The notes under the pieces: generated by a model | What the model was told of the DNA's origin: nothing | Databases searched by the model: none | What the model saw: the letters and a program-made list of their open reading frames with translations, nothing else | Program-made: the position numbers and the translations under genes | IMG/VR virus record: IMGVR_UViG_2695420724_000001 | Coordinates: 1-7,391 of that record | DNA: 7,391 nucleotides | From: a virus | Taxonomy: Duplodnaviria; Heunggongvirae; Uroviricota; Caudoviricetes | Reading direction: 5' to 3' (one strand) | Shown here: positions 4,061 through 4,150 of the stretch, piece after piece | How positions within the stretch are numbered: the first letter of the stretch is position 1 | Layout: the number at the start of each line of letters is the position of its first letter

Positions 4061-4150
4061 TAACCACGAATAAAAAATACAATATGTACTTCTCAAATAC
4101 AAGTAAAAATACACATTGTGCATGGATGGTTCCAGTACAGAGCGTAATAA
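4061..4150. promoter_or_regulatory. OR region: divergent PR/PRM promoters and operator sites (exact hexamers not resolved)
   Basis: 90-bp AT-rich interval between divergent cro and cI. Three AATACA(A/C) repeats at 4076, 4096 and 4108, and a dyad TACA-ATA-TGTA at 4078-4088. The same motif recurs at OL. Confidence 0.6.

Follow-up and report, generated by a model that had tools for sequence, protein, structure and literature searches.

Does a short sequence that recurs around the immunity region of a lambdoid phage mark the sites bound by its repressor and Cro, and which of its copies belong to the operators? This question is raised by a 7,391-nucleotide stretch of viral DNA (Caudoviricetes; IMG/VR record IMGVR_UViG_2695420724_000001, positions 1 to 7,391), which was analysed over its whole length and is referred to here as the window. 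The initial annotation, made from the letters of the window and its open reading frames, had proposed the hexamer AATACA as a CI/Cro operator half-site concentrated at OR, at OL and at an inverted repeat further downstream.

Early region and immunity type

The open reading frame list and Pfam scans identified the window as a lambdoid early region whose orientation is reversed relative to the lambda map. Lambda-type P and O, on the minus strand, are followed by cII, cro, OR, cI, a 173-aa open reading frame, OL and N. The genes around the two operators are:

3391-3690, minus strand, cII (open reading frame list and Pfam)
3832-4047, minus strand, cro, an HTH protein (Pfam HTH_3)
4158 or 4164 to 4817, plus strand, cI repressor (Pfam HTH_3 and Peptidase_S24)
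5319-5840, between cI and OL, 173-aa open reading frame; hypothetical in VT2-Sakai (H0093)
6570-6842, plus strand, N antiterminator (open reading frame list and Pfam)

The layout is thus lambdoid, with divergent cro (minus strand) and cI (plus strand) flanking OR and a second operator upstream of N. In lambda the interval between cI and OL is occupied by rexA and rexB, whereas here it holds the 173-aa open reading frame, which has no Pfam match. A gathering-threshold search of the window against Rfam found no family.

The switch region is closely shared with Shiga toxin phages. Over 811 bases, running from the beginning of cII across cro and OR as far as cI, the window is 100% identical to Stx2 phage 1717, YYZ-2008 and phi330; positions 3690-4500 are 99.8% identical to VT2-Sakai, Nil2 and the Morioka Stx1 and Stx2-II phages, and the OL-N stretch (6130-6570) is 99.5% identical to the VT2-Sakai-type phage set. 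Five of the six 17-mers annotated as operators in VT2-Sakai map back to the window by exact match including their flanks; for OR1 and OL3 the flanking bases alone differ from AP000422, and the 17-mers are the published sequences. Judged by these identities, the window is assigned to the VT2-Sakai immunity type, its cI, cro and operator DNA being essentially identical to AP000422. The putative OR1-3 and OL1-3 of VT2-Sakai (AP000422), the Morioka phages (AP005153, AP005154), 1717 and Nil2 are the same six 17-mers, with no material difference. The immunity is not that of lambda, as the N-terminal 80 residues of CI do not resemble those of lambda CI and the operators bear no relation to the TATCACCGC-type.

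CI has the architecture of a phage repressor (Pfam HTH_3, 1.9e-10; Peptidase_S24, 1.1e-28). Over the aligned stretch a single residue separates its C-terminal domain from that of lambda CI, whereas the two N-terminal domains are dissimilar. CI is a chimera of a non-lambda HTH N-terminal domain and a lambda-like S24 C-terminal domain, implying a recombination joint inside cI. Given the near-identity of the C-terminal domains, RecA-stimulated cleavage and contacts between dimers are expected to follow the lambda pattern. A sequence search against solved structures returned weak matches only, the best being DBP48 (8tac, E = 2.5e-4) and the lambda repressor N-terminal domain (E = 4.5e-4), and there is therefore no close structural template. 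The recognition helices of Cro (TQGAIGHW) and CI (TQGGIGHW) nearly match each other, and in an alignment of eight phages CI and Cro across the family share TQG[GA]IGHW.

Hexamer counts and the operator motif

AATACA or its complement TGTATT occurs 11 times in the window (1593, 3347, 4076, 4096, 4108, 6201, 6275, 6306, 6348, 7200 and 7220), against an expectation of 3.81 +/- 2.04; among 200 dinucleotide-preserving shuffles, one contained 11 copies or more. The enrichment proposed initially is therefore borne out by the exact count, which also exceeds the minimum of nine copies given then. The accompanying statement that all copies but one fall in OR, the OL region or the downstream inverted repeat was wrong, because a second coding copy, at 1593, had been missed.

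A longer motif is more specific than the hexamer itself. RTACANNNNGT, common to the six sites described below, has nine matches in the window against 1.17 +/- 1.11 expected, a number reached in none of 200 shuffles, and eight of the nine lie within OR or the OL region. AATACA half-sites lie inside operators at four positions only, 4076, 4108, 6306 and 6348. When these four are set aside and the downstream hairpin is counted once, six copies of AATACA are left where about four would be expected, a number within chance. What sets the operators apart is ARTACA followed four bases on by GT. Thus, the core of the initial proposal stands, and what fails is its breadth, since four of the 11 copies are operator half-sites.

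OR3 and OL1 carry AGTACA, so that a search for the hexamer misses both. For this reason three consistently spaced sites per operator had not been resolved before; three can now be placed at each, with centres 32 and 26 bp apart at OR and 33 and 25 bp apart at OL.

Six probable operators at OR and OL

The six sites, each annotated as a putative operator and written here with the conserved half first, are:

4075-4091, plus strand, OR1, AAATACAATATGTACTT; between PR -35 and -10, overlapping -10
4107-4123, plus strand, OR2, AAATACACATTGTGCAT; abutting PRM -35
4133-4149, plus strand, OR3, CAGTACAGAGCGTAATA; overlapping PRM -10, with AGTACA
6305-6321, plus strand, OL3, AAATACAAAGCGTTGTA; containing a near-palindrome
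6338-6354, minus strand, OL2, CAATACAATTTGTTCTA; overlapping PL -35 by 3 bp
6363-6379, plus strand, OL1, AAGTACATATCGTACTA; between PL -35 and -10, the most symmetric site, with AGTACA

The promoters that they adjoin are:

4074-4102, minus strand, PR: -35 TTGTAT (4102-4097), 17-bp spacer, -10 TATTTT (4079-4074); annotated major rightward promoter in AP000422
4123-4151, plus strand, PRM: weak -35 TGGATG, -10 AATAAT (4146-4151); annotated maintenance promoter
6352-6380, plus strand, PL: TTGACC, 17-bp spacer, TACTAT; consensus scan and AP000422 annotation

AATACA is, with high probability, the better-conserved half of 17-bp, partly symmetric operators of VT2-Sakai CI and Cro, three at OR and three upstream of N, with the consensus AARTACAnnnnGTnnTA. 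The six sites are recovered without recourse to annotation: a comparison of every OR 17-mer with every OL 17-mer on both strands returned the same set, and its best OR-to-OL match was OR1 with OL1 (15 of 17 positions). Similarly, a stretch at 6364-6378 within OL1 had been reported to match 4076-4090 on the opposite strand at 13 of 15 positions, and recomputation gave the same figure. In a leave-one-out analysis with a position weight matrix (PWM), each site ranked between 6th and 11th of 14,750 window positions, directly behind the training sites (OL2, 6; OR1 and OL3, 7; OR3, 8). OR2 was the weakest (score 7.8, rank 11), and OL1 had the top PWM score. One detail of the initial description needs correction, namely that the 14-bp palindrome TACAAAGCGTTGTA at 6308-6321, within OL3, is not perfect but self-complementary at 12 of its 14 positions. 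Centre-to-centre spacings are 32 bp for OR1-OR2, 26 bp for OR2-OR3, 33 bp for OL3-OL2 and 25 bp for OL2-OL1. OL is a same-direction copy of OR and not its mirror image, so that OL1 and PL correspond to OR3 and PRM. Homology to lambda stops just upstream of OL3.

The operator set was already known. GenBank entries AP000422 (VT2-Sakai) and AP005153 (Morioka) annotate six 17-bp 'putative operators' together with PR, PRM, PL, nutL and nutR, and sites so labelled have been in GenBank since about 2000; the finding is real and ordinary. Two papers also list the same six 17-mers in supplementary tables, one of these being Table S5 of Yin et al. 2015 (PMC4587872), in which the OR and OL labels are swapped relative to genomic position and to the GenBank annotation.

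The sites overlap -10 and -35 elements of PR, PRM and PL. Elements of PR and PRM were taken from annotation, sequence and conservation and those of PL from a consensus scan; the start sites are predicted. From its best -10, PRM would start at or next to the first cI ATG (4158), at the A of that ATG, and the centre of OR2 lies at about -43 from this predicted start. Because the PRM -10 (4146-4151) puts the predicted start at 4158, the cI mRNA may be leaderless, like that of lambda. ATGAAAA is kept at the cI start in the Proteus, Vibrio, Pseudomonas and Salmonella relatives, and the PRM -10 is conserved across distant relatives. Public records place the cI start at 4122 or 4164, and the longest open reading frame in the window begins at a TTG at 4116.

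Conservation among related phages

Phage 683R2, whose CI N-terminal domain is 96% identical, keeps all six sites while its spacers have diverged: it differs from the window at 9 of 102 site positions and at 34 of 111 spacer positions (Fisher p = 7e-5). Within the sites, positions 2-6 (ARTAC) and 12-13 (GT) are free of differences. At OL, 683R2 has one change in OL3 (position 15), changes only at the central positions 8 and 9 in OL2, and a change only at position 8 in OL1.

The Sakai OR type was found in 776 of 5,426 complete E. coli genomes, at 82-100% identity. Eleven natural E. coli variants of OR were aligned; in nine of them the annotated Cro has one and the same protein accession. Within the OR sites the only variable positions are 1, 3, 7, 8, 9, 10 and 16; OR1 varies only at positions 1 and 7, and OR2 only at 8, 9 and 16. 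The contrast between sites and spacers in this alignment is modest, with 9 of 51 site columns variable against 23 of 63 spacer columns (p = 0.036). In strain 493/89 the AGTACA of OR3 is replaced by AATACA, and position 3 is therefore an interchangeable purine.

Distant relatives, with CI N-terminal domains 49-56% identical, were found by tblastn against phage records, a word-index protein search having given only near-identical fragments. They comprise Salmonella phages ST64T and epsilon34 as well as Klebsiella, Proteus, Vibrio and Pseudomonas phages. In these relatives, OR contains TAC-N5-GTA sites at a distance of 58-61 bp that flank a weaker one, and OL has corresponding sites. At the OR3 position, TAC-N5-GTAAT occurs in the Salmonella, Klebsiella, Vibrio and Pseudomonas relatives and TAC-N5-GTATA in Proteus, and the weaker middle site, at the OR2 position, is present in all relatives examined. 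Furthermore, the spacing is kept in the E. coli, Salmonella and Klebsiella relatives (OR, 32-34 and 25-26 bp; OL, 30-33 and 25 bp).

ST64T (phage L type) and epsilon34 share the repressor/Cro family of the window (CI N-terminal domain 50-56% identical, Cro 43-69%), the TAC-N5-GTA core, the three-site layout and a similar spacing. They differ from it in the bases flanking TAC (TATAC in epsilon34; AGTAC and AATAC in ST64T) and in several recognition-helix residues. The epsilon34 genome paper predicted the operator consensus WTACRAWWTGTAT. Taken together, the sites exist, are statistically exceptional and overlap promoter elements, and their contact positions are conserved while the spacers drift.

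AATACA copies outside the operators

Seven copies of the hexamer lie outside the six sites. It is very unlikely that all listed copies, including those at 4096, 6201, 6275 and 7199-7226, form an extended set of CI sites, auxiliary for looping or for genes downstream of N. What speaks for such a set is a single 17-mer on the minus strand at 6191-6207 (AAATACAATTGGTTATG), which holds the 6201 copy: it is the best unannotated PWM match in the window (score 11.4, more exactly 11.38) and matches OL2 at 14 of 17 positions, with a local chance of so good a match of about 0.025. However, a score as high is expected in 23% of random 7.4-kb sequences (0.26 per random window). The 17-mer is moreover 100% identical in lambda, in mEp234, which has lambda immunity, and in WGPS9, which has a third immunity, while 683R2 and ST64T do not have it. 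Because it is identical across immunities and absent from these two phages, it was rejected as a seventh immunity-specific operator; it does not track the repressor.

The segment 6185-6258 is 94.6% identical to lambda 35708-35781 and lies just after the cI-operon terminator (6142-6170). Phages of at least three immunity types carry it upstream of OL; 683R2 and ST64T lack it. A literature search for a function of this lambda segment upstream of OL, as an IHF site or UP element, gave nothing usable.

The other copies named in the extended set fare no better as operators. The copy at 6275, within the same lambda-shared segment as the 6201 copy, is an orphan half-site without a GT partner, and at this place lambda reads AATGCC and mEp234 CACACA. 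As one half of a fourth OR site (4095-4111), the copy at 4096 would have a PWM score of 1.65 and no GT partner, and it reads AATGCA in 8 of the 11 variants. This copy is the complement of the PR -35, of which TTGnAT is invariant in the 11 variants.

The inverted repeat at 7199-7226 was correctly recognized as such in the initial annotation. Its 9-bp repeat is perfect, and in the transcript it forms part of a 14-bp hairpin (-23 kcal/mol, z = -6.2). A role as a remote operator does not hold for it, as its arms face outward (TGTATT...AATACA), 20 bp apart, and it is conserved regardless of immunity: the exact 28-mer is present in HK106, mEp234 and Min27, which have other immunities, and in 683R2, and over 300 phage records, spanning many immunity types, contain the module around it. 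The repeat sits between terminator-like hairpins at 7141-7162 and 7289-7306, upstream of cIII (ATG at 7379). Lacking a U-tract, its hairpin is not an intrinsic terminator, and it is possibly an RNA processing or stability element.

Finally, the copies at 1593 and 3347 are coding and have no partner GT, the latter lying at the 5' end of O. Repeats of the TCCCTCnTTTTGAGGGAT type lie inside the O gene at 2880-3010, and the 3347 copy is unrelated to them; by comparison with lambda, these repeats resemble ori iterons.

The next-best PWM match after 6191-6207, at 3414-3430 on the minus strand (CAAGACCGAGCGTTCTA, score 10.7), was also considered as an operator and was treated as chance because at least 0.26 matches at 10.7 or above are expected per random window. 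It is located in the conserved 3' end of cII and adjoins a terminator-like GC stem and T-run, which may belong to an oop-type antisense RNA.

Base composition and heterologous repressors

Less likely again is that the hexamer excess arose as a by-product of AT-rich promoter DNA, through fragments such as TTGTAT and TATT, and not from protein contacts. The composition of OR (34.5% GC) would suit this explanation, as would the identity of the 4096 copy with the PR -35, the overlap of the AATA of OR1 with the PR -10 and that of GTAATAAT in OR3 with the PRM -10. Yet the local AT-rich composition predicts 0.17 copies at OR and 0.38 in the OL region, where 3 and 4 are observed, and OL3 has the full motif and overlaps no promoter element. 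Neither the GT at a fixed distance nor the conservation of TAC...GT amid diverging spacers is explained by composition.

The least credible alternative is that the sites are functional targets of lambda CI or another heterologous repressor and not of the cognate one. It would explain the cross-immunity reported by Fattah et al. 2000, which is cited in a 2023 study in which lambda CI shifted all six VT2-Sakai 17-mers in EMSA. However, the apparent Kd was 3.7-6.4 micromolar; in that assay lambda OR1 and OL1 were bound 10-30 times more tightly, and unrelated Stx2-I sequences gave similar values. Moreover, the CI in the window has a DNA-binding domain that is not lambda-like, and across genera the motif varies together with this family of N-terminal domains. 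These lambda CI values are the only binding data found for the 17-mers; for the cognate CI or Cro, the searchable literature yielded neither a footprint nor an EMSA, and no genetic operator mutant. The footprints of phage BAA2326 were considered as an experimental match and set aside, as they concern a different immunity.

Operator spacing and proposed control of the switch

The reading of six operators for the cognate CI and Cro can be set beside the lambda switch, which has the same divergent cI and cro genes, three 17-bp partly symmetric sites per operator, OR2 beside the PRM -35, OR3 over the PRM -10 and a near-identical CI C-terminal domain. The N-terminal domain and the operators, in contrast, are unrelated (TATCACCGCCAGTGGTA in lambda versus AARTACAnnnnGTnnTA), and the spacing of 24 and 23 bp at OR and 20 and 24 bp at OL in lambda compares with 32 and 26 bp and 33 and 25 bp in the window. 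The Stx phages 933W and BAA2326, studied in the Koudelka laboratory, likewise have a Stx-prophage CI switch in which OR1-OR3 control PR and PRM. Their operators and repressor DNA-binding domains are unrelated to those of the window, and their sites have been footprinted, whereas the Sakai-type sites are predicted.

The geometry is read from the sequence; from lambda we infer the mechanism, including the identity of the bound protein, the order in which the sites fill and any cooperativity. CI dimers on OR1 and on OL1 and OL2 would occlude PR and PL, CI on OR2, beside the weak PRM -35, would activate cI transcription, and CI on OR3 would cover the PRM -10 and limit PRM. Cro would shut PRM through the same sites, and RecA-stimulated self-cleavage of the lambda-type C-terminal domain would lift repression. 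The spacing of 32-33 bp for OR1-OR2 and OL2-OL3, compared with 20-24 bp in lambda, argues against taking lambda-style cooperativity for granted.

If the lambda-type domain pairs best at 25-26 bp, the cooperative pair would be OR2-OR3 and not OR1-OR2, and OR2 and OR3 would be filled together, an arrangement that we consider unlikely. In a lesser variant of the same idea, 6191-6207 would be a fortuitous seventh CI site, in this phage only.

The operators themselves were predicted more than 20 years ago. Knowing the true set, and the look-alikes to ignore, is useful for annotation and for the design of reporters or footprints. What is not trivial is the conserved spacing of 33 and 25-26 bp combined with a lambda-type cooperativity domain. 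The switch governs induction of the Stx2 prophage in E. coli O157:H7 Sakai and its relatives, and with it toxin release. Should pairing of OR2 with OR3 be true, PRM would be chronically self-repressed and the level of repressor low, which would account in structural terms for the proposed 'hair-trigger' induction of Stx prophages.
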